In this document: one piece after another, positions 9,985-23,052 of the stretch
Position numbering within the stretch: the stretch's first letter is position 1
Layout: each line of letters begins with the position of its first letter
Notes under the pieces: model-generated
Databases searched by the model: none
Seen by the model: only the letters and a program-made list of their open reading frames with translations
Told to the model about the DNA's origin: nothing
Assembly (NCBI GenBank): GCA_021498095.1
Contig: JAIZWK010000001.1
Span: 3,030,001-3,062,000 of the forward strand
DNA from: Candidatus Harpocratesius repetitus
GTDB lineage: Archaea > Asgardarchaeota > Lokiarchaeia > Sigyniarchaeales > Promethearchaeaceae
Length of the DNA: 32,000 bases
Direction: 5' to 3'
Program-made: the position numbers and the translations under genes

Positions 9985-11343
9985 TTAAAATGTACGTATC
10001 CAGAAATCCAAGCGCTTTTGTTTGTGGATATAAGGAAGAAGATTACTAGCATGTTTCCAATATTCTAGAGGAATGGATAATTTGGATTCAACTCTAGTCA
10101 AAGCGGATTCTAGAGTTTCATGCATTTTTACATTATTACCTTTCCAACCATTAGCTAAAGCTTGTTTTACTGTCTCTCGAATTACCCACACACCAAGAGG
10201 GACCACATATCCACCAGATACTTCTCTAAAAACAATTACTCGTGCCTGGCGTCTACTTTTAACTAAAAATTCTTCAATTTCTTTTCGCGCTGCATAATAA
10301 GCACCAGTTACATGATCAGCATATTTTTTTCTTCCTTGCTCAAATTCAAAATCATTCACAATCACCGGTTGAATTGCTTGCATTGGGAGATTTAAACCAG
10401 GAATTGCTTGATTCCAAATGGATGATTGATTCCAACATTCGTTCATTTCATATGCCCACGGTCCTGGAATAAAAATAATAACAAATTTATTATCAAGATA
10501 TTCCCCGTAAAATGAATAATACTTATCTATAGATGGATAATGCTGAAGTTTTTTCTTCAAATATTTACCAATTATATCATCCACTGCAGTAATACTCCAA
10601 CGCGTCGGCACTAAACGACGGTTTTGTTTAACCCCTAATAAACCAGCAGAAAAGATGCGTTGAATGGAGGTTACATTTAAAGAATCTGCATGATATAGAT
10701 ATTCTTCAATTGCATCTGCTGCCTTTAAATCAGTATCGCTAACAGCTTTATCAACAGGTTTTAAAATCTTAATATTATCGATAATTTGTATTTTTTCTGC
10801 TCTTCCACTTGGACCTTGTGGTGGTGAATGTGTTCCATAAAGCATCCCTACTCGCACTCTACTAAGTTTTGCTTCTGTATCCACAGAATTGGAAGCTAAT
10901 GTTAATTCTTGAGTTGCTTCCAGTAGTTTTAAGTTGGATCTTGATAGTTCTTTTTCTAATTCTGAAATTGGTAAATTATACTTCACATTCATAGTAAAAT
11001 TTGAACGTACTAAACCGGATCGATAAGCAATAATTTCATTAATGTCTTTACCAAACCAACTCTCAGGTGAATCTAAATATTTCGTATCTTTTTGTGCGGA
11101 AAAATTTCCAATAGGAATTAACGGCCCTATATTAACATGCGGATAACCAACATGGCCAACAAAAACTGCAGGAGGTGAAGCACCAAAGATATCTTGTTTT
11201 CCCTTGAATTGCCCAGGATCTACAGACAGAGTGCTTTTTAATACACTGTATTTTAGTAATATAGGACATTTTGACTTTCCACAAAGAAGACGAGCCCCTT
11301 TACAACGAACGCAAATATTATCAGATACTTGAGGTCGAACCAT
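9985..11343 (-). CDS. nreA: Nre family archaeal DNA repair protein
   Basis: CVRCKGARLLCGKSKCP N-terminus, SPPAVFVG, LVPTRWSITAVD, GAYYAAR, PLGVWVIRE, and a C-terminal PIP box QKRLDFW. Confidence 0.92.
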   Translation of the reverse strand: MVRPQVSDNICVRCKGARLLCGKSKCPILLKYSVLKSTLSVDPGQFKGKQDIFGASPPAVFVGHVGYPHVNIGPLIPIGNFSAQKDTKYLDSPESWFGKDINEIIAYRSGLVRSNFTMNVKYNLPISELEKELSRSNLKLLEATQELTLASNSVDTEAKLSRVRVGMLYGTHSPPQGPSGRAEKIQIIDNIKILKPVDKAVSDTDLKAADAIEEYLYHADSLNVTSIQRIFSAGLLGVKQNRRLVPTRWSITAVDDIIGKYLKKKLQHYPSIDKYYSFYGEYLDNKFVIIFIPGPWAYEMNECWNQSSIWNQAIPGLNLPMQAIQPVIVNDFEFEQGRKKYADHVTGAYYAARKEIEEFLVKSRRQARVIVFREVSGGYVVPLGVWVIRETVKQALANGWKGNNVKMHETLESALTRVESKLSIPLEYWKHASNLLPYIHKQKRLDFWIRTF

Positions 11344-11707
11344 GAGAATGTTTCACATTGCTTAATGATCAACTTAATTTTAATTTTCAATTAAAAGATT
11401 AATACTAAAAAATAATAGAATTCTCTTTATTTGAAGATGCTCCTTTTTGAATTAATAATTTCGTAAAAATAAATAATAAATACATTAAAAAGAATATTTC
11501 TCCTTTGACATAAGATCCTTAACCTATTTAAAGTACTAACAGAACCCATGCGTCTTCTTCCAATAAGTTTTAATAATATTTCCGACAAAATGATAATATT
11601 GACGCATTGCAATCTCGTCAATCGAAAGATTTAAATCTGAACAACAATCAACCATTTTTTAAGATTCTTTAATCATTTTTAAAGATAACCAAGGGGAATT
11701 CAAAAAT

Positions 11708-11920
11708 ATGAAAATTGTAACGATTAACATTCCAGATCAATATTTAGATGGAATAGAAACAATGGTTAATCTTGGATTTTATCCTTCACGAAGTGAAGCA
11801 GTTCGCCAAGCATTAAAGCAATTCTTAGCAAGAGAAGCACAGTTCAGTGAAGATTTAGAGACCGACAGATTTGCTAAATTAAAGCAGTTCCAATTAGATA
11901 CAATAATCAATTATAAATAA
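11708..11920 (+). CDS. Ribbon-helix-helix (CopG/Arc/MetJ-type) transcriptional regulator
   Basis: KIVTINIP beta strand followed by YPSRSEAVRQAL. Confidence 0.85.
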   Translation: MKIVTINIPDQYLDGIETMVNLGFYPSRSEAVRQALKQFLAREAQFSEDLETDRFAKLKQFQLDTIINYK

Positions 11921-12083
11921 ACTCAAGATTTCTTTTTGTTTTTTTCTCTTTTCCTTTATAATGCCAAGTTAACTGCTCATATAAGGTTATTTTGATAAAG
12001 CAACTCATTTGACAATTCCTTTCGACTTAATTACTTAGCTCTTTTCATTCATGCCCGTAACTTTTTATATATTTGTATCTTAG

Positions 12084-12091
12084 TTTAAATA
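12084..12091 (+). promoter_or_regulatory. Candidate TATA box for the ileS leader transcript
   Basis: TTTAAATA ends about 30 nt before the leader ATG at 12121, compatible with a near-leaderless start. Confidence 0.35.
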
Positions 12092-12120
12092 GGTCTGTCC
12101 TAAAGGAATAAGTGAAAATT

Positions 12121-12210
12121 ATGCCCGCGTCTGAAACATCTATTCTTATTTCTATATCAACGGAGTTGTTTAAGATCATCTCAGGCGCTATTATTCAAAT
12201 TATCGCATAA
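12121..12210 (+). CDS. Putative Ile-rich leader peptide of ileS (MPASETSILISISTELFKIISGAIIQIIA)
   Basis: ATG...TAA, 29 aa, 9 Ile including three Ile-Ile pairs, 292 nt upstream of ileS on the same strand. Confidence 0.7.
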   Translation: MPASETSILISISTELFKIISGAIIQIIA

Positions 12211-12352
12211 CACTTTTCATTGGCTCCCTAAAATTATCTTGTTTCAGACGCAAGTATTAATATTAAACACTATCAAAAAGAAATTAAATTTCTTATTCAT
12301 TTGTTAGGGAGATCAAAGTCAATGAAATCAGATGAATAATTCTGAAATAAGA
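12121..12352 (+). promoter_or_regulatory. Putative attenuator with alternative helices in the ileS leader
   Basis: Complementary pairs read directly from the sequence: 12127-38/12240-51 (12 bp perfect), 12215-31/12304-27 (9+8 bp), 12237-48/12341-52 (12 bp, one G-U), 12293-303/12329-39 (11 bp, one G-U). Confidence 0.6.
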
Positions 12353-12502
12353 AAATGCGTTGAAATTTGAAAGAATTCAATAAAAAAAGCAAGTGTGATT
12401 CAATTATCTTTTTTTAAGATGAAAATTTGTTCATCATATTAAACAATCCACCTAAATCTTAAATTGATTAAATGGCGGGAACTTTAAAAATTTCAATAAT
12501 AT

Positions 12503-15500
12503 ATGAAAATATTTGAGGAAAAAACAATGAAACCCTTAGGAAATCTAAATTTACTAAAAATTGAAGAAGATATATTAGAATGGTGGGAGAAACAGAAAAT
12601 CTATGAAAAAATAAAAGCTCAAGAACCAGCTGATGAAGAAAAAACTTTTAGATTTATTGATGGCCCACCATATACTACAGGTGATGTCCATTTAGGCACT
12701 GCATGGAATAAAATAATGAAAGATCTTGTCATTAAATATAAAAGAATGCAAGGATTTCGTGTAACTGATACTCCTGGTTATGACACTCATGGTTTACCAA
12801 TTGAAGTTGTAACAGAAAAGAAATTGGGAATTAAAAATAAGCAAGAGATTAAGACGTTTGGATTGGATAAGTTTATTTCAGAATGCAGAGCTTATGCTGA
12901 AAGTAAAATTCCCAGTATGAATGAACAATTCAAGCGTCTTGGTTGCACTTTCTGGGACTGGGATAATCCTTATGTAACATTAAAAAATACATATATTCAA
13001 GGTATCTGGTGGACTCTTAAACGTGCATGGGAAAATGGGTATTTATACAAATTCTATAAACCCCAAAACTGCTGTCCACGATGTGCAACTGCTTTAGCCA
13101 AACATGAATATGAATATCATGATATTACTGATACAGCTATTTTTGTCAAATTTCAATCAGTTGATGATCCTAAAACGTTTTTCATTATTTGGACTACAAC
13201 ACCTTGGACCTTAATCAGCAATACAAATATTATGGCCAACCCAGATGTTGAATATGTCAAAATGCGTGTAAAAGACGAATACTGGATAATGGCAATTGCA
13301 GCTACTTCAGATCTCCTCCAAAATAAATTAGGATTGGTAGTAAATGCAGAAGAGGGTTTTTCATATGGAGAACGTTATACTGGACGCGATCTTGAAGGAA
13401 AACGCTATATTCATCCTTTTGCAGATTTAATACCAAAACAATTAGAATTAGAAAAAGAACAACCATTAGTTCACACAATCATCCTTTCTCACGAATATGT
13501 CCAAGAAACTGGGGGAAGTGGGTTAGTTCACACTGCACCTGGACACGGTCCTGAAGATTTCGAAGTTGGTGTTTCCTATAATATACCGATTTATTCACCA
13601 GTCGCTATGGATGGAACTTATACGAACGATGCAGGAGAATACTTTAAAGGTAAGTATGTGCATGATGCAAATCACGAAATCATTGAAATGCTCCGCAAAC
13701 GGGGAACATTAGTTCATGAAGATTCAATTTCACATGAATATGCACATTGTTGGCGCTGTCATACTAAACTCGTATATAGAGCCACCGAGCAATGGTTTTT
13801 CAAGACATCAGCACTGCGAGATGAAATGTTAAAAGAAAATGATGAAATATTTTGGATACCTGAGTATGCAGGTGCCACAAATTTCAAATCATGGTTAACC
13901 AGTTTACAAGATTGGTGTATTTCACGACAACGATACTGGGGAATTCCCCTCTCAATTTGGACCTGTGAAAATCCAGAATGTGATAATATGCATGTAATTG
14001 GTTCAATGGAAGAATTACGAGAAATCGCAGGAACTTGTCCTGAAGATATCCACAAACCTTGGATTGACGAAGTTACATGGAAATGTGATAAATGTGGAAT
14101 GAAGATGACCCGTATTCCAGATGTTATGGATGTTTGGCTTGATTCTGGATCGGTAATGTGGGCGTCACATAAATTTGTTGATGGGCATGAACATTATGAT
14201 TCATGGGTTCCCGCAGATTTTATTCTTGAAGGAAAAGATCAAATCCGAGGTTGGTTTAACTCTTTATTATGTAGTGCTATGGTCTCTACTAAGAAGAGAA
14301 ATTACAACGTTTGCTATATGCACGGATGGGTAACTAGTCATGGAACGAAAATGTCTAAATCTTTAGGAAATGCCTTAGACCCACAAGATGTCATTAATGG
14401 AAATATAGAAATTTTAACAGAAAAACAAAAAGAATATTTACGAGAATTGGCAGCGGATGAACGTACGTCTAAATTCGATAAAACAAAACAAAAATCAAGT
14501 AAAAACAAGAAACACTGGAAACCAAAATATATAAAAGATGATAGACGCTGGTCAATGATTAAAGGAATTGAAACATTCAGATTTTATTCAGTAATGGGCA
14601 CTCCCCCGGGAAAAGATTTAAATTTTGATTACAAAGAATATACAGATACGTTTAAAGTCTTAAATACAATTTGGAATACATTTAAATTTGCCCAAGAAAA
14701 AATGAAATTAAATGACTTTCATCCTAAGACACATTTGATCAAAAAAGATGAACTTTCTGCAGCAGATAAATGGATTCTGGCTCGAACAAATAGTTTGATT
14801 CGTACAATAACGGATTATTTTGAAAAATTTGAATTACCATCAATTCCTGCTACTTTACAAAATTTCATATTAAATGATCTCTCTCGCTGGTACATCACCA
14901 TTATACGAGATCAAGTTGAACCATCAAATAAAGATCCTTCAAAATACACCACTTTGGCAGTACTTTGGCATGTATTATATCGTGTGCTACTATTACTTGC
15001 TCCGGTTAATCCAATGTTGAGTGAAGAGATCTATCAAAAAATATTTCGTTCAGAATTATCAGATCAGTTAAAACTCTCAATTCATTTAGAACAATGGCCA
15101 AAACCATCACTTGAATACGATAATCATGAAATTGAAGAAGAAATGGCGACTGCTCGTAGAATAATTGATGAAGTGCGTTCATTAAAATCTGAACATAAAA
15201 TAAAACTTCGCTGGCCTACAAAGGGATTAATTATCGTTCCTAAAAATGACAACCCTAAACCTTCATTCCCACAATTGATTCAAGAAATGAGTAATGTAAA
15301 GCAAATAAAAATCAGAAAAACTCACCCGAAAAATCCAGATTATTTATCCACAGAATGGGGAGAGTACGCAATTTATTTGGATTTAGAAGAATCAGAAGAA
15401 ATTCAACAAGAGCGAATTTTACGAGATTTGCTTCGAACTATTCAATTTCTCCGTAAAAATGCAAAATTACAAACAGGAGAATCCATTGAACTTCACTTAA

Positions 15501-15787
15501 GCACAAAACATCCTTTTCTTTTAAAAACGATAAAAGATAATGCTGAAGCAATTAAAATAAAGGTCACAGCGAATCCGATGGATTTTTCACCTGTATCAAA
15601 CCCTAATCTTGATAATTGGACCCGCCATGGTTTCAATGTCTGCTTAAATGAGAATTGCTATTCAGTAGTTAGAGATAAAAACGTTCAAGCAATCCATAAA
15701 GGAGAAAGTTATAAGTGCAGCTATTGTGGTAAATTAGTTACCCTAGAAAAATTGGGTGAAATTCAGATTGAATTTAAAAAGAATTAA
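12503..15787 (+). CDS. ileS: Isoleucyl-tRNA synthetase, archaeal/eukaryal type
   Basis: DGPPYTTGDVHLGT (HIGH), GYDTHGLPIE, WTTTPWTL, GSGLVHTAPGHG, DWCISRQRYWG, EGKDQIRGWF, KMSKS. The start may be ATG 12527, which is preceded by TGAGG. Confidence 0.97.
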   Translation: MKIFEEKTMKPLGNLNLLKIEEDILEWWEKQKIYEKIKAQEPADEEKTFRFIDGPPYTTGDVHLGTAWNKIMKDLVIKYKRMQGFRVTDTPGYDTHGLPIEVVTEKKLGIKNKQEIKTFGLDKFISECRAYAESKIPSMNEQFKRLGCTFWDWDNPYVTLKNTYIQGIWWTLKRAWENGYLYKFYKPQNCCPRCATALAKHEYEYHDITDTAIFVKFQSVDDPKTFFIIWTTTPWTLISNTNIMANPDVEYVKMRVKDEYWIMAIAATSDLLQNKLGLVVNAEEGFSYGERYTGRDLEGKRYIHPFADLIPKQLELEKEQPLVHTIILSHEYVQETGGSGLVHTAPGHGPEDFEVGVSYNIPIYSPVAMDGTYTNDAGEYFKGKYVHDANHEIIEMLRKRGTLVHEDSISHEYAHCWRCHTKLVYRATEQWFFKTSALRDEMLKENDEIFWIPEYAGATNFKSWLTSLQDWCISRQRYWGIPLSIWTCENPECDNMHVIGSMEELREIAGTCPEDIHKPWIDEVTWKCDKCGMKMTRIPDVMDVWLDSGSVMWASHKFVDGHEHYDSWVPADFILEGKDQIRGWFNSLLCSAMVSTKKRNYNVCYMHGWVTSHGTKMSKSLGNALDPQDVINGNIEILTEKQKEYLRELAADERTSKFDKTKQKSSKNKKHWKPKYIKDDRRWSMIKGIETFRFYSVMGTPPGKDLNFDYKEYTDTFKVLNTIWNTFKFAQEKMKLNDFHPKTHLIKKDELSAADKWILARTNSLIRTITDYFEKFELPSIPATLQNFILNDLSRWYITIIRDQVEPSNKDPSKYTTLAVLWHVLYRVLLLLAPVNPMLSEEIYQKIFRSELSDQLKLSIHLEQWPKPSLEYDNHEIEEEMATARRIIDEVRSLKSEHKIKLRWPTKGLIIVPKNDNPKPSFPQLIQEMSNVKQIKIRKTHPKNPDYLSTEWGEYAIYLDLEESEEIQQERILRDLLRTIQFLRKNAKLQTGESIELHLSTKHPFLLKTIKDNAEAIKIKVTANPMDFSPVSNPNLDNWTRHGFNVCLNENCYSVVRDKNVQAIHKGESYKCSYCGKLVTLEKLGEIQIEFKKN

Positions 15788-17739: not shown

Positions 17740-18510
17740 GTGAAAAATTCAACTGAAATGCGGATTTCTCATCATTTTCAATACAATCACTCAGATTGTA
17801 CCATTATTTCGAATAACCGAGAGAATATCGAAAAATCTAAAGCCAAATTTTATAATGATATTAAAGAACTCGAAAATTTTGTTAATATTCATAAAGATTG
17901 GAGAAACTCATATATTCCTCTTCTAAGTCAACCTGCAGCTAATAAAAATTCATTAATTTATACAATGGAACAAGCCAGTCTTAAATGTAATGTTGGACCA
18001 ATGGCAGCTGTTGCTGGTGCAATAGCAGATAGAATGGTTTCAGCAATGATTCAAAATCCAAAAACAACCATCGCTGTAGTTGAGAATGGTGGTGAAATTT
18101 CCATAAATTCTAAAGAAGATATTATTATTGGATTAATGGTTTTATCAACAACATTACAATCAAAACTCGGTTTTAGATATAAAGGTGGGACAAGACCAAT
18201 TGGAGTAGCAACCAGCTCATCTACTTTCGGTCATGCAGAGAGTTTTGGAGAAGCAGATGCAGTAGTGGTTTTTGCCTCTAATGCGGCTTTAGCAGATGCA
18301 GCTGCAACCTATATTTGTAATAATGTTAAGGGAAAAGAGGATAAAGAGGCAATAAATGCAGGTTTGGAAGTATTTGATTCAATTCCACAATTATTAGGTG
18401 TATTAATAGTAAAAAATCAGCTGATTGGAAAAAAAGGGAAATTACCTACTCTAATCAGAATCAAAGATGAAAAGAATATTCTACTGCAAAAAAAAATTGA
18501 AAATATATAG
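17740..18510 (+). CDS. UPF0280 / COG2122 ApbE-like protein (MA1715-type sulfide-assimilation factor)
   Basis: GPMAAVAGAIAD, VENGGEI, TSSSTFGHAESFGEADAVVVFA, AALADAAAT. Confidence 0.88.
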   Translation: MKNSTEMRISHHFQYNHSDCTIISNNRENIEKSKAKFYNDIKELENFVNIHKDWRNSYIPLLSQPAANKNSLIYTMEQASLKCNVGPMAAVAGAIADRMVSAMIQNPKTTIAVVENGGEISINSKEDIIIGLMVLSTTLQSKLGFRYKGGTRPIGVATSSSTFGHAESFGEADAVVVFASNAALADAAATYICNNVKGKEDKEAINAGLEVFDSIPQLLGVLIVKNQLIGKKGKLPTLIRIKDEKNILLQKKIENI

Positions 18511-18567
18511 GGTTTTAAGGTATTTTGGAAAAAAAAATATCAAAAATTTCATTTTTTTTTTTAACTT

Positions 18568-18777
18568 TCATGTTATGTAAAGTGCTCGGCGAGGACATGC
18601 ATCTAAACATAACATACATCCTTTACAATTTTCAGCTTTGAATAAAAACGAATAATTGTTGTCAAAACTCAATGCTCCGAATCTACAGTACGATGTACAC
18701 CAACCACATTCAACACATAAGTCTTTATTAAACTGTATCGATTTTTTGTTGATTTGTGCTGAGTTCATATTATGCAT
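18568..18777 (-). CDS. 2x[4Fe-4S] ferredoxin, MA1822-like partner of the homocysteine synthase
   Basis: CVECGWCTSYC and CKGCMLCLDACP motifs. Its start overlaps the stop of the COG1900 gene, with GGAGG upstream. Confidence 0.85.
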   Translation of the reverse strand: MHNMNSAQINKKSIQFNKDLCVECGWCTSYCRFGALSFDNNYSFLFKAENCKGCMLCLDACPRRALYIT

Positions 18778-19894
18778 CCTCCAATTGATAAGTTTTAAAA
18801 CTTTGTTTTATTGACAAATTCTGGATGGGTTTGATAATTGGAATTCTTTTTTCTTCAACCATTTTTTTTAATAATCTTGTAATAATACGGGCTTTCCTAT
18901 AGGATGAAGTGGATGAAACAGGGACAATCTTTCCATCTATCTCAATTTGTCTTGATTTTAACTCAGCATAAGACACACTACGAATTAAAGGGCGTTCTCT
19001 TTTTCCTGTAGAATAATCTAAAACATTAGTAAATATTTCACTATCAGGTGTACCGCTTGTTCTTGCTAGAGATTCATTCAAAATAGGAATTGGAATACCT
19101 AATCCAATAAAGCAACTATATCCATAACCCTTTAAAAATGCACCTGCAAGAAATTCTGGAGTCATTTTCTTTAAATCCCCTGATACCATTAAATTACCCC
19201 ATTCTGATTCAGGATTATGTTGAGTTCCAGAACCGATGATATGTCCAACCGTACCACCTAAAAAAACAGGAGTTCCAATTCCTATTGTTTGATAAGTTGG
19301 ATCATTGTTTAATGGAGATAATGTGCCTACACCTCCATATGTACCATTTTGATACTTGGGAAGAAGTTTCCCCATATAAGTATACAATATTTCACCAGAT
19401 GAATTAACTGCACAAATATATTTTTGATATGCATTACGGGGATTGATCATTATTGCTTGATTAAAATCTTGAAGCCCTAAAGAAACATCAAATGATTTTC
19501 GAGGATAGCAATCAGTTCCAGTCCCTGTAGAGTGAATTGACACATTTTCTCCTTTGACCAGTTTTTCGAGAACGTGACCCCCACCAACTTTATCAAAAAC
19601 TCGACTACCTTGAGTTACACCTAAATAACAATCAGCTGCAGCATTTCCATGATACGCATTTACTCCATCAATTTCAATAGTTTCAATTTTGATTGGTGGA
19701 TCAGGCTGTGGTAAATTAAAGAATACACCGCTTGAACACATACAACCAAATGTTCCAGTGGTAACAACATCTACGGCTTCTGCAGCATATTCCACTCCTT
19801 CTTTCTCAACCAATGAAACCATTTCTTCTGCTGTTAATATTACTGCAGTCCCATCATGAATTTTTGAATTAATATCTTCATATGTTTTCTCCAA
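18770..19894 (-). CDS. L-aspartate-semialdehyde sulfurtransferase / homocysteine biosynthesis protein (COG1900/DUF39, MA1821/MJ0100-type), without CBS domains
   Basis: KTYEDINSKI..GTAVILTAEEM, VDVVTTGTFGCMCSSG, NPRNAYQ, SPLNNDP..TIGIGT.VFLGG. TTG start preceded by GGAGG. Confidence 0.9.
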   Translation of the reverse strand: MEKTYEDINSKIHDGTAVILTAEEMVSLVEKEGVEYAAEAVDVVTTGTFGCMCSSGVFFNLPQPDPPIKIETIEIDGVNAYHGNAAADCYLGVTQGSRVFDKVGGGHVLEKLVKGENVSIHSTGTGTDCYPRKSFDVSLGLQDFNQAIMINPRNAYQKYICAVNSSGEILYTYMGKLLPKYQNGTYGGVGTLSPLNNDPTYQTIGIGTPVFLGGTVGHIIGSGTQHNPESEWGNLMVSGDLKKMTPEFLAGAFLKGYGYSCFIGLGIPIPILNESLARTSGTPDSEIFTNVLDYSTGKRERPLIRSVSYAELKSRQIEIDGKIVPVSSTSSYRKARIITRLLKKMVEEKRIPIIKPIQNLSIKQSFKTYQLEDA

Positions 19895-19896
19895 TT

Positions 19897-21381
19897 TTAT
19901 TCCTCCGTTTTCTTTTTTGCATAACCATCTTTATTGCACTCATCAGAAAATATTAGATTTATTTCATTTGCAACTATTGGAATAAATTCACGATTAAGAA
20001 CTATCGAAACAGTTATTCCATTATAATCTTGCAAAATTCCATGAATTTGTATTCCATGCTTTTTTAAAATTTGTCCAATCTTTGAAACAATTTCAGCTTG
20101 GTAAAAAGATTCAGTTATGATTGTAATGATTCCAACTGATTCTATGCTAATTTTTAACCATTCCCTTTGTATCTGTGATTTATAACAAAATTCTTCCAAT
20201 TTTTTTCTGATATTTGAATCTTTAGAGCATAATAATAACCTATTTTGAGAAAATGTTTGCTGAAAGAGTGAAATATGCCAATTTTTTTTAATGAAATATG
20301 AAAATAATTCCATTAGGAATGTTGATTCTTGGAATAGAAATGGGGATTTGAGAATTATTAAGTAAGAAGACTTTGTTATTTCAATCCCTTTTATAGGAAT
20401 TTCCATGCTTTGTGATGAAATATAGGTAAAATTTGAACTCTTTGGTTTATGAAAATGACGTATTTCAATGGGAATCATTTGATCTTCAATAATGCTTATA
20501 CATTTTGGATGTAGAATTTTAGCTCCAAGAACTGCAATTTCTTTTGCTTCTTTATAATTGAGTTTTTGAATTAAATGTGGATCTTGAATATATTCAGGAT
20601 TACCAGAAAGTACACCAGGAACATCTTTCCAAAGGATAATTCTTCCCTCGTGAAAGAGATTCAAGTCAAATAGCATACGACCAATGATGGTAGCTGTAAA
20701 ATCACTTCCACCCCTTCCTAATGTAGTGGTATAGCCAATTTTATTTCGACCAATAAAACCTGTGATTACAATAACTTGATGATTTCGATTATTTAAGAGT
20801 AATGGAAGTAATTTTTGGTTAATACGAGCTTGCGTGTGTTGAAGATTAGGAATTGCCTTATTATATTCGCTGTTTGTAATGATTAATTCTTCACCAAAAA
20901 ATACTGATGAAGTAAAGTTTTCTTGTTTTAAATATAAATTAACCAAAGTAGCGCAAAGTTTTTCACCAAACGACATTACATAATCGATAAAATAAGGAAT
21001 TATTCCAAATTCTTCCACTTCTTCTAAAACTTTTGCAAGCTGATGTAATATAAGTTGGAGTTCTCCTTTGGCACTGTTAGTTACCTTAAAATTCTCTTCA
21101 AATAATAAATCAATGTACTCTTCATGAATTTCTTCGATTTGTTTTAAACGAGAAATTACATCATGTCCAGATCCTTTACTCGCTAAATTGGTTACTTCAA
21201 TTAATAAGTCGGTTACTCCTTTCAATGCTGAAACTACTAAAATAATAGAAATAGGAATGCTATTTTGTTGATAGTATGTCCGAATAATGCTTTTAATCTG
21301 CTTAAAATCAGAAGGTTCAGTTAAACACGACCCACCAAATTTCATAATAAATACTTTATTAGGATTTTCTTGTTCATTCAT
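19897..21381 (-). CDS. ask: Aspartate kinase with C-terminal ACT-like region
   Basis: MKFGGS, VVSALKGVTDLL, SFGEKL, TTLGRGGSDFTA, WKDVPGV. The start overlaps the asd stop (ATGA), with AGGAGG upstream. Confidence 0.92.
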   Translation of the reverse strand: MNEQENPNKVFIMKFGGSCLTEPSDFKQIKSIIRTYYQQNSIPISIILVVSALKGVTDLLIEVTNLASKGSGHDVISRLKQIEEIHEEYIDLLFEENFKVTNSAKGELQLILHQLAKVLEEVEEFGIIPYFIDYVMSFGEKLCATLVNLYLKQENFTSSVFFGEELIITNSEYNKAIPNLQHTQARINQKLLPLLLNNRNHQVIVITGFIGRNKIGYTTTLGRGGSDFTATIIGRMLFDLNLFHEGRIILWKDVPGVLSGNPEYIQDPHLIQKLNYKEAKEIAVLGAKILHPKCISIIEDQMIPIEIRHFHKPKSSNFTYISSQSMEIPIKGIEITKSSYLIILKSPFLFQESTFLMELFSYFIKKNWHISLFQQTFSQNRLLLCSKDSNIRKKLEEFCYKSQIQREWLKISIESVGIITIITESFYQAEIVSKIGQILKKHGIQIHGILQDYNGITVSIVLNREFIPIVANEINLIFSDECNKDGYAKKKTEE

Positions 21382-22583
21382 TGATTTTTCCTCCTAATAA
21401 TTCCTTTAGCATAAAGATATTCTGCATTAAGAACTGCACCTCTCCCTGCACCCAATTCAGTATTATGAGATAAAACGGTCATTTTAAAACCTTTTTCAAA
21501 GTTTGTGGGTTCTAATCCACCAATAAATGTAGTCATACCAAGAGATCGATCTACTAATTCTATTCTGGGCTGAGGTCTATCTCTTTCAGCAGATGAAAAG
21601 AGATGGATGGGTACTTTGGGATAATTGGGAAGATTCATACCATTAATTGTGTTTCCTTCCTTATTTTGATTAAAATCATCAAAACATTGCCGAATTTCTT
21701 CTTCGGAACAGTCAATTTTTGTTTGGAAAAATATTGATAATAAATGACCCTCTAAAACAGGAACCCGATTACATTTAGAGTCAATTTTAAATTCTGGATA
21801 AATAAAAATCGATTTTTCTGAAATACTATTTATTTTTTCCTGAAATCCATCTTTACTTATTTTTGCAAATATTTTTTTTATTTCATAATTGACTTTCTTT
21901 TCTTCTTCAGGAATATAAGGAATAATATTGCCGATTATATCATAAGCACTCACACCAGCATATCCTGCTCCACTAATTGCTTGCATTGAAACAACATTCA
22001 CAGATTGTAATCCAAATTTACGAAAAATTGGATATAACGCAATAGCAAGACCAACAGTAGTACAATTTGGACCAGGACAAACAAATCCTCGAGAATTGTT
22101 GATATATCTTTGGATTTCAAATGCTTGGAAGTGAGATCCATTAATAATAGGAAGAAATATTGGAATTTCTGGTTTATAACGCGCCCATGATGCAGTTGAA
22201 AACACAGGATAGTTTTGAGCTAACAAGGGTTCGAGTTCTGCTGCATATTCTGAAGGAATTGCAGAAAAAATTATATCTATTTCTTCTTTATTTATGTCAT
22301 CTGGTGATTTTACAATCATCTCAGCAATTTCTTTTGGCAAATATAGATTTGAAGTACCTCTTCGACCATATTTATATTTTTTTCCTACTGTTCCAAAACC
22401 ATGAAGTGAAGAAATTTGAAACCAAGGATGTTTAACTAAAGCTTCGACTATAGATTGCCCAACTAATCCAGTACAACCTATTATTGCAGCTTTCAACTTT
22501 TGCTTAGGATTTAAAGTTATAGTTACTAAAGGATTTTCTTCTTTCATATTTTCTGGATTTTTATTTTTATTTTCTTGATTCAT
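21378..22583 (-). CDS. asd: Aspartate-semialdehyde dehydrogenase, archaeal/fungal type
   Basis: IIGCTGLVGQ, PNCTT (catalytic Cys), SMQAISGAG, RVPVLEGH, SHNTELGA (catalytic His). Confidence 0.95.
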   Translation of the reverse strand: MNQENKNKNPENMKEENPLVTITLNPKQKLKAAIIGCTGLVGQSIVEALVKHPWFQISSLHGFGTVGKKYKYGRRGTSNLYLPKEIAEMIVKSPDDINKEEIDIIFSAIPSEYAAELEPLLAQNYPVFSTASWARYKPEIPIFLPIINGSHFQAFEIQRYINNSRGFVCPGPNCTTVGLAIALYPIFRKFGLQSVNVVSMQAISGAGYAGVSAYDIIGNIIPYIPEEEKKVNYEIKKIFAKISKDGFQEKINSISEKSIFIYPEFKIDSKCNRVPVLEGHLLSIFFQTKIDCSEEEIRQCFDDFNQNKEGNTINGMNLPNYPKVPIHLFSSAERDRPQPRIELVDRSLGMTTFIGGLEPTNFEKGFKMTVLSHNTELGAGRGAVLNAEYLYAKGIIRRKNQ

Positions 22584-22812: not shown

Positions 22813-22896
22813 TTATGCCATTACCATTAACATGGACATCATCATCATGGTCGATGGCATCTGAGACATCATTTGCATATCCCACATGCTTCCCAT
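22813..22896 (-). CDS. Putative Met-rich leader peptide (MGSMWDMQMMSQMPSTMMMMSMLMVMA) of the asd-ask-homocysteine operon
   Basis: 27 aa with 13 ATG codons including a run of four, ending 229 nt upstream of asd on the same strand. An in-frame upstream ATG at 22932 would give 39 aa. Confidence 0.85.
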   Translation of the reverse strand: MGSMWDMQMMSQMPSTMMMMSMLMVMA

Positions 22897-23052
22897 GATT
22901 GTTTCTAGGTAAACATTAGAATCGAATCGCATTCTTATTTATTTTGTATAAAGCATACTTTAAGAAATTATTGATGGAAATAAAATATGATAAATTTTAG
23001 TTAAACGTCAATATTTCAAATGTCAAAATAACATTACTAAATAAATGATCGC

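Follow-up and report, generated by a model that had tools for sequence, protein, structure and literature searches.

An isoleucine-rich open reading frame enclosed by a conserved helix upstream of ileS in Lokiarchaeia: a candidate leader sensing tRNA-Ile supply

Introduction

Sensing of charged tRNA through leader peptides is a textbook mechanism in bacteria, which needs coupled transcription and translation. The pheM-pheST attenuator of E. coli, as well as ilvL/ivbL, trpL and hisL, are built around a short open reading frame (ORF) upstream of a synthetase or biosynthetic gene, and the pairing that surrounds this ORF includes overlapping antiterminator and terminator hairpins with a U-run directly after them. 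The ileS genes of bacteria can be preceded by a T-box, an untranslated element that binds tRNA directly. In mycobacteria, leaderless short ORFs encoding polycysteine have been described as a 'Cys ribulon' (Canestrari et al., bioRxiv 10.1101/834739). A full-text literature search found no published description of a leader-peptide attenuator from archaea.

Here, we analyzed a window of 32,000 nucleotides (the whole stretch of DNA studied, G000:C1:3030001-3062000) from the closed genome (4.36 Mb, 31% GC) of Candidatus Harpocratesius repetitus. A first-pass annotation of this window, made from the letters of the DNA, had described a short Ile-rich ORF (hereafter sORF) in front of the gene for isoleucyl-tRNA synthetase (ileS) and had read it as a sensor of Ile-tRNA charging. 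Sequence comparisons lend good support to a translated, Ile-codon-rich element that is tied to ileS.

Results

Organization of the ileS upstream region

The sORF comprises 29 codons including nine for Ile (five ATT, three ATC and one ATA), a composition given in the first-pass annotation and confirmed here from the sequence and the ORF list. The three Ile-Ile pairs placed near its 3' end were found in codons 19-28, the TATA-like box described about 30 nt before the ORF is present (Table 1), and the gap of ~580 nt reported 5' of ileS agrees with the distance of about 580-600 nt between ileS and the preceding gene, which encodes a ribbon-helix-helix (RHH) protein. TATA-like AT-rich boxes were also read by eye some 25-65 nt before the sORF ATG in relatives. 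The tetramer GTGA upstream of the start codon is complementary to UCAC in the 3' tail of 16S rRNA. A longest-ORF listing begins ileS at ATG 12503, but the N-termini of relatives and the position of the GAGG sequence place its start probably at ATG 12527 (MKPLGNL).

Table 1. Features of the ileS upstream region and of the methionine locus, in window positions
Feature	Position	Strand	Remarks
RHH gene	11708-11920		70-aa ribbon-helix-helix protein (Pfam)
TATA-like box TTTAAATA	12084-12091	+	29 nt from the sORF ATG; candidate promoter for the sORF transcript, on weak evidence in DNA of 31% GC
GTGA	12112-12115	+	resembles a Shine-Dalgarno sequence; 5 nt from the sORF ATG
Candidate leader sORF	12121-12210	+	29 codons plus stop, MPASETSILISISTELFKIISGAIIQIIA; ATG 12121-12123, TAA 12208-12210
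Closing helix, 5' arm GCGTCTGAAACA	12127-12138	+	begins 3 nt past the ATG
Ile-codon cluster	12175-12204	+	C-terminal; Ile-Ile pairs at codons 19-20, 24-25 and 27-28
Closing helix, 3' arm TGTTTCAGACGC	12240-12251	+	begins 30 nt past the stop
T-block	12402-12440	+	T7 (12409-12415), conserved ATG (12419-12421), hairpin GATGAA/TTCATC (12418-12423 with 12430-12435)
Second TATA-like box TTTAAAAA	12483-12490	+	preceded by GGGAAC; possible G000-specific proximal ileS promoter
GAGG	12515-12518	+	Shine-Dalgarno sequence of ileS; five aligned sequences all have GAGGAA at 8-9 nt from the ATG
ileS	12527-15787	+	isoleucyl-tRNA synthetase; Pfam tRNA-synt_1 and Anticodon_1; relatives begin MKxLG
Met-rich leader ORF MRFDSNVYLETIMGSMWDMQMMSQMPSTMMMMSMLMVMA	22813-22932	-	precedes asd and the aspartate kinase gene at a distance of 230 nt

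Several Lokiarchaeia keep the genes Nre, RHH and ileS in this order (window positions 9985-11920 and loci L284, L286, L287 and L318), and at some loci an inserted gene for GTP cyclohydrolase II on the opposite strand separates RHH from ileS. The region 5' of the RHH gene (11580-11640) contains a conserved CCGACAAAA motif, a palindrome and a conserved promoter-like box GAAAGATTTAAAT. The palindrome covaries between genomes (ATTGACG-N11-CGTCAAT in G000, the genome of the window, and ATTGATG..CATCAAT in G002 and L286), and these motifs are probably the promoter and operator of the RHH gene. A GACGC word near the RHH promoter of G000, considered as an RHH operator, is not conserved (GATGA in G002 and L286).

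The proteome encoded by G000 contains 10% Ile, and its intergenic ATG ORFs of 20-40 codons (n = 2275) have a mean Ile content of 11%. A content of at least 31% was found in 13 of these 2275 ORFs (0.57%), four of which also have three Ile-Ile pairs, and under looser limits 48 short ORFs rich in Ile were counted in the 450 nt preceding a gene. The first-pass annotation had cautioned that Ile enrichment alone is weak evidence, which these counts bear out. It had also held that similar enrichment, if common among random short ORFs, would speak against its reading; here the answer is divided, as the sORF is among the highest 0.6% of the intergenic short ORFs, yet dozens of Ile-rich ones exist. Since composition alone is weak, the case must rest on other evidence.

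Conservation and linkage to ileS

The ileS loci were taken from 30 relatives, with metagenomic contigs added via homologues of the RHH protein and IleRS, and a covariance model was built from five copies of the element. The model matches nine sequences with E values from 1e-35 to 1e-6. Two of them belong to the same genus (G000 and G002) and one to another genus (G010), and the other six are metagenomic (L284, L286, L314, L315, L316 and L318). The carriers span several Lokiarchaeia lineages. The RHH protein of G010 is named Lokiarchaeum ossiferum in the source records, and this carrier looks like a cultured species. Scans of the genome and metagenome contigs with a 17-base pattern were too unspecific and returned at least 120 chance matches each and one true extra copy, L215, which is identical to G002.

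In all nine sequences, the element is present as a single copy directly upstream of ileS and on the same strand. Its upstream neighbour is the RHH gene in G000, G002, G010, L286 and L318, a divergent gene for GTP cyclohydrolase II in L284 and L316, and a gene for a 224-aa protein in L315. In L284, RHH and ileS are apart and the element has remained beside ileS, and no element follows the RHH gene where this gene stands in another context (L288 and L289). Thus, the element belongs to ileS, as it stays with this gene when RHH is separated and is absent after a relocated RHH. The expectation of the first-pass annotation that the ORF would be conserved upstream of ileS was borne out by the nine sequences, with their in-frame indels, turnover of Ile codons and covarying helix.

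The element is absent from four genomes of genus g6, in which RHH and ileS are only about 140 nt apart, as well as from G006 (of the genus of G010), g3, g7 and L317. For g2, a covariance-model scan of the genome G003 gave only a weak, unconvincing match elsewhere, and the sequence of the ileS locus (L019) extends no more than 31 nt upstream. As many relatives are without it, the element is dispensable for ileS. It may have had a single origin; the resolution of the IleRS tree within the family is too low for gains and losses of the element to be dated or counted.

A conserved helix closes the ORF

A perfect 12-nt inverted repeat surrounds the sORF, a feature that had been overlooked in the first-pass annotation (Table 1). 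Its 3' arm contains CAGACGCAA, which is invariant in seven of the nine sequences. Across the nine sequences, the helix has seven near-invariant pairs and two further positions with AU/UA/CG covariation. The covariation score is 0.153 compared to 0.048 in shuffled alignments (none of 500 shuffles reached 0.153), and 84% of the cells are paired versus 14-40% with the 3' partner slid, both from an alignment that had been fitted to the covariance model. The spacing of the arms varies from 117 to 129 nt. No conserved secondary structure was found inside the ORF region on either strand, and such an unstructured interior fits a coding interior. The 12-mer arm is unique in the genome and the model has one match per genome, which rules out a MITE or other repeat family.

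In a scan for closing duplexes, which took ORFs of 15-50 codons and scored the most stable pairing of the start region with the 55 nt past the stop, the Ile sORF ranked 16th of 3161 intergenic sORFs with -22.4 kcal/mol (top 0.5%). The next rank, with the same energy, was held by a Met-rich ORF described below, and the higher ranks were mostly rRNA, tRNA and repeat sequences. Strong closing duplexes were also observed at other sORFs (genome coordinates 1198552-1198656 on the minus strand, 4185425-4185487 on the plus strand, 267085-267141 and 531870-531932 on the minus strand, and 249171-249320 on the plus strand), some of which may be additional leader ORFs or structured RNAs not yet annotated.

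Rfam models gave no match in the window at the gathering threshold, and positions 11850-12560 at E values up to 10 gave only weak chance matches to snoRNA and CRISPR-repeat models. ARAGORN predicted no tRNA in the window. Mimicry of tRNA was rejected, as the helix arms are unlike the acceptor stems of the tRNA-Ile of this genome and other tRNA features are absent, and matches to GCGTCTG..CAGACGC in G008 and G020 turned out to be chance pattern matches to ordinary intron-bearing tRNAs. ARAGORN listed just 36 tRNA genes in G000, many of them with long introns (for example, a 56-nt intron in tRNA-Ile GAT), and several isoacceptors were probably missed owing to unusual introns.

Signs of translation and of selection for isoleucine codons

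The ATG of the sORF is invariant, and in each of the nine sequences its frame runs without interruption for 28-32 codons, at a nucleotide divergence of about 50%. No other of the six frames is open in all three genomes compared (G000, G002 and G010). In the covariance-model-based alignment, which is not codon-aware, indels within the sORF measure 3, 3, 6, 3, 3 and 6 nt, and those just past the stop 1, 2, 4 and 5 nt. GTGA is found 5-6 nt before the ATG in five of the nine homologues (G000, L284, L314, L315 and L316). Speaking against the constraint of a normal protein-coding gene, substitutions are spread evenly across the three codon positions, with no third-position bias, and the peptides share little beyond the Ile codons and the residues encoded by the helix arm (x-A-S). 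Low peptide conservation is expected for a leader peptide, in which only few codons matter. The invariant ATG, the kept frame and length, the in-frame indels and the GTGA word favour translation of the sORF, which is very probable.

The share of Ile is 16-34% in each of the nine peptides and 4-7 of the last 12 codons, with near-invariant Ile at alignment codons 20, 26 and 28. The ratio of Ile to Leu is 71:20 over the nine peptides versus 1:1 in the proteome, and Leu codons are as AT-rich as Ile codons. Turnover of Ile was also observed: G010 (…IKIPIDAIIIIR), L318 (…IMIIADNIIICG) and L316 (…DIIIIADAIIIR) have Ile at positions that are Phe, Ser or Gln in G000, and in turn are without some of the Ile residues present in G000. 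The subgroup of L284, L314 and L315 has 16-20% Ile and peptides ending in …KIISxAxISIRG, where ISIRG is free of Ile-Ile pairs; this subgroup weakens the case for selection of Ile and leaves the pattern unbroken.

The spacer and the ileS promoter

The spacer between the element and ileS is 160-316 nt long, and its sequence is not conserved. No conserved hairpin-plus-U terminator or other terminator-like site was found after the element, and no conserved U-run directly past the helix, the nearest conserved U-tract lying 160 nt beyond it. Duplex energies between the sORF region and the ribosome-binding site of ileS in eight sequences did not differ from those of shuffles (z -0.5 to +0.9). Two other pairings were considered and set aside. 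Complementarity of the Ile codons (12189-12201) to 12489-12501 in G000 lies within a G000-specific insertion and is not conserved, and pairing of the sORF word TCATCTC with GAGATGA of the T-block is confined to close relatives and shows no covariation, so that no claim is based on it.

The T-block, the only conserved element of the spacer, is kept 45-117 nt upstream of the ileS ATG in all sequences of family f1, including those without the sORF. It stands at -27 to -32 from the ileS start where there is no Shine-Dalgarno sequence (L017 and L317), and at -45 or further upstream where GAGG is present. This spacing pattern, together with the presence of the T-block in the absence of the sORF, fits the TATA box of an ileS promoter lying past the sORF. 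On the other hand, the 3' half of the T-block hairpin shows compensatory differences between subgroups (TTCATC versus CCGTCAT), which points to transcription of the T-block. Judging by these features, it may serve as a U-tract terminator or attenuation site for the sORF transcript, as the core promoter (TATA) of ileS, or as both. A tiny ORF begins at the T-block ATG, encoding MKICSSY in G000 and spanning 2-21 codons elsewhere.

The second TATA-like box in the spacer lies within a stretch of about 45 nt found only in G000 and resembles the conserved box of the RHH promoter. It is quite possible that ileS has its own promoter downstream of 12210, either at 12402-12440 or at 12483-12490. TATA-like words showed no positional peak upstream of 1330 genes of this AT-rich genome, and promoters are therefore not placeable by motif alone; Shine-Dalgarno-like words peak at -20 to -10 upstream of these genes. 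If the T-block is the ileS promoter, the sORF could act via read-through or promoter interference. The objection that the first-pass annotation had raised against its own reading, namely that ileS might have a promoter downstream of 12210, would in that case partly hold.

A parallel methionine-rich ORF upstream of asd

The first-pass annotation had drawn a parallel to a Met leader at a second locus. With the Met-rich ORF in the same window, this parallel holds up well, with the same closing-helix design conserved across genera. The Met ORF contains 13-14 Met in 39 codons and is the most compositionally biased sORF of the genome (p about 1e-13). The arms of its helix are located at roughly 22930-22908 and 22808-22792. 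Upstream of asd, such ORFs have 8-14 Met in G000, G001 and G002 (g1) and in G007 and G012 (g6), and G010 (g5) has a weaker candidate with 6 Met. In the minimum-energy fold, the ORF is closed by a helix including or abutting the AUG in all six sequences, and this helix covaries (GCGATTCGA/TCGATCGC, GCGATTTGA/TCAAATCGC and GCGATTG/CAATCGC, the last with the core GCGAT..ATCGC). A run of four to five T follows 12-20 nt past the helix. The genes asd and aspartate kinase form a tight minus-strand operon with the genes downstream of them (17740-22583), and asd and the amino-acid kinase were assigned by Pfam. The pheS gene of this genome has another gene 56 nt upstream, and no Phe-rich ORF precedes it.

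Both loci have a short ORF (27-39 codons for Met) with cognate codons towards its 3' end and a closing helix that begins at or beside the AUG and ends shortly past the stop, and the distance from the Met ORF to the regulated gene is 100-230 nt. They differ in that the Met bias is far stronger, the Met helix includes the AUG itself, and a U-run lies nearby at the Met locus, whereas the Ile element has none. The occurrence of the same unusual design at two loci, each matching the amino acid of its downstream genes, makes a regulatory reading much likelier than it would be from either locus alone.

Discussion

Alternative explanations of the element

The sORF might be an independent gene for an Ile-rich small protein of about 29 aa, for instance a membrane or IleRS-associated micro-protein, which stands beside ileS only by proximity. 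Its coding signature and candidate promoter agree with this, as do a possible promoter for ileS alone, the T7 run 200 nt downstream, at which a separate transcript could end, and the good conservation of the segment ELxKIIS in the g1 group. However, the peptide is poorly conserved outside the helix-forming and Ile codons, and substitutions show no third-position bias. Its hydrophobicity is also inconsistent, as the peptides of G010 and of the L284 group contain the residues H, Q, K, D, P and R, and the bias concerns Ile specifically and not hydrophobic residues in general. Moreover, the linkage to ileS survives three different upstream contexts, and a helix occluding the start-codon region is typical of regulatory leaders. 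We consider a separate small protein unlikely.

It is also improbable that the element is non-coding and the ORF incidental, with the arms belonging to a structured small RNA or serving as DNA half-sites for a regulator such as the RHH protein. The two arms are the most conserved parts of the element, the fold of the minus strand is stable too (z -2.8), an RHH regulator gene adjoins in several genomes, and symmetric changes in half-sites can mimic covariation. Against this, the interior shows no conserved structure on either strand, whereas the ATG, the frame and the length are maintained and the indels are in frame, and the distance between the arms is variable. The element persists where RHH is separated or absent nearby (L284, L315 and L316), the g6 genomes have RHH without the element, and the conserved palindrome upstream of RHH differs from the arms in sequence (ATTGAYG..CRTCAAT).

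A type I toxin-like gene, in which the mRNA of a small hydrophobic peptide is silenced by long-range 5'-3' pairing, is very improbable: the G000 peptide of ~29 aa is fairly hydrophobic (mean Kyte-Doolittle value of about 1.7 for residues 7-29) and the helix adjoins the start codon, but in several lineages the element is a single copy at one fixed chromosomal site before ileS, the peptides of several homologues are polar, and relatives do not keep the minus-strand ORF. An ORF arisen by chance in an AT-rich spacer, which the abundance of Ile-rich short ORFs in this genome would allow, is effectively refuted by the conservation of the element in nine sequences with unalignable flanks, at the E values of the covariance model given above.

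Proposed mechanism and significance

A translated leader ORF that senses the supply of Ile-tRNA for ileS is, on balance, the probable reading of the element. The sensor proposed in the first-pass annotation is partly supported: the Ile-rich ORF is conserved and tied to ileS in nine sequences, but neither a conserved terminator switch nor pairing with the ribosome-binding site was found. The comparisons show the ORF with its conservation, its signs of translation and its Ile bias, as well as the helix and the linkage to ileS, from which we infer ribosome stalling, the queue model, co-transcription with ileS and a read-out step.

In this mechanism, ribosomes would translate the 29-codon ORF, the last dozen codons of which are rich in Ile. 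With charged tRNA-Ile plentiful, they would run through and leave, the 5' arm would pair with the 3' arm, and the closed helix would loop the ORF and shut off further initiation. As a ribosome that initiates would cover the 5' arm, initiation should be blocked in the closed state, and translation of the sORF would then be possible mainly during RNA synthesis. With charged tRNA-Ile scarce, ribosomes would stall on the Ile codons and form a queue. Since about three ribosome footprints fit on the ORF, one stalled and two queued ribosomes would cover the 5' arm and the helix would stay open. Archaeal RNA polymerase terminates at U-tracts without a hairpin (see PMC8716108). The likeliest read-out would be the number of transcripts from the sORF promoter that pass the U-tract at 12409-12415 to reach ileS; alternatively, upstream transcription would interfere with an ileS promoter inside the T-block.

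More tentatively, closing-helix leader ORFs could form a family in Lokiarchaeia, which would represent ribosome-mediated amino-acid sensing in archaea (Ile for ileS, Met for the homocysteine-asd operon, and perhaps others). Across this family, a queue behind a stalled ribosome would hold a start-proximal helix open, and the read-out would be either read-through of a U-tract, where termination is hairpin-independent and possibly assisted by aCPSF1/FttA, or interference with the promoter of the main gene.

If the sensing function is real, Asgard archaea regulate a synthetase and an amino-acid pathway via ribosome stalling, and they do so with an RNA architecture, a helix around the whole ORF, that differs from the bacterial one. 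The locus would offer a testable case for transcription-translation coupling, U-tract termination and control by upstream ORFs in the lineage closest to eukaryotes. For annotation, simple longest-ORF calling would miss both the probable true start of ileS and the 29-codon gene, which is below the usual length cut-offs.

Comparison with known systems

Several described systems were compared with the Ile element. It shares with a T-box upstream of bacterial ileS the regulated gene and the proposed signal (uncharged versus charged tRNA-Ile), but it is an ORF, and the T-box model RF00230 gave no match at the gathering threshold or at E values up to 10. Type I toxin-antitoxin systems are marked by a conserved hydrophobic transmembrane peptide, an antisense RNA and often multi-copy or mobile occurrence, whereas several peptides of the Ile element are polar, its locus is fixed and single, and its reverse strand has no conserved ORF.

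The mycobacterial Cys sORFs resemble the Ile element, as proposed here, in having a sensory sORF at or near the 5' end of the transcript, a run of codons for one amino acid, and several loci per genome (here Ile and Met). In these sORFs a duplex hides the ribosome-binding site, whereas the Ile element, 160-316 nt away from ileS, has no such pairing with it. The likeness to pheM-pheST, ilvL/ivbL, trpL and hisL lies in a short ORF preceding a synthetase or biosynthetic gene, with cognate codons near the 3' end and embedded in RNA pairing; the ORF is rich in cognate codons as in an attenuator of the bacterial type. Mutually exclusive antiterminator and terminator hairpins were not found, the only conserved structure being a single long-range helix that encloses the whole ORF. 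As the defining structures of bacterial attenuators and Cys sORFs were tested for and are absent, the element is not a member of either family. The logic that it appears to share with the bacterial leaders pheM, ilvL and trpL is that of a ribosome reporting the supply of charged tRNA. Thus, by analogy, the Ile element would work like the bacterial leaders and the Cys sORFs, and is built differently.
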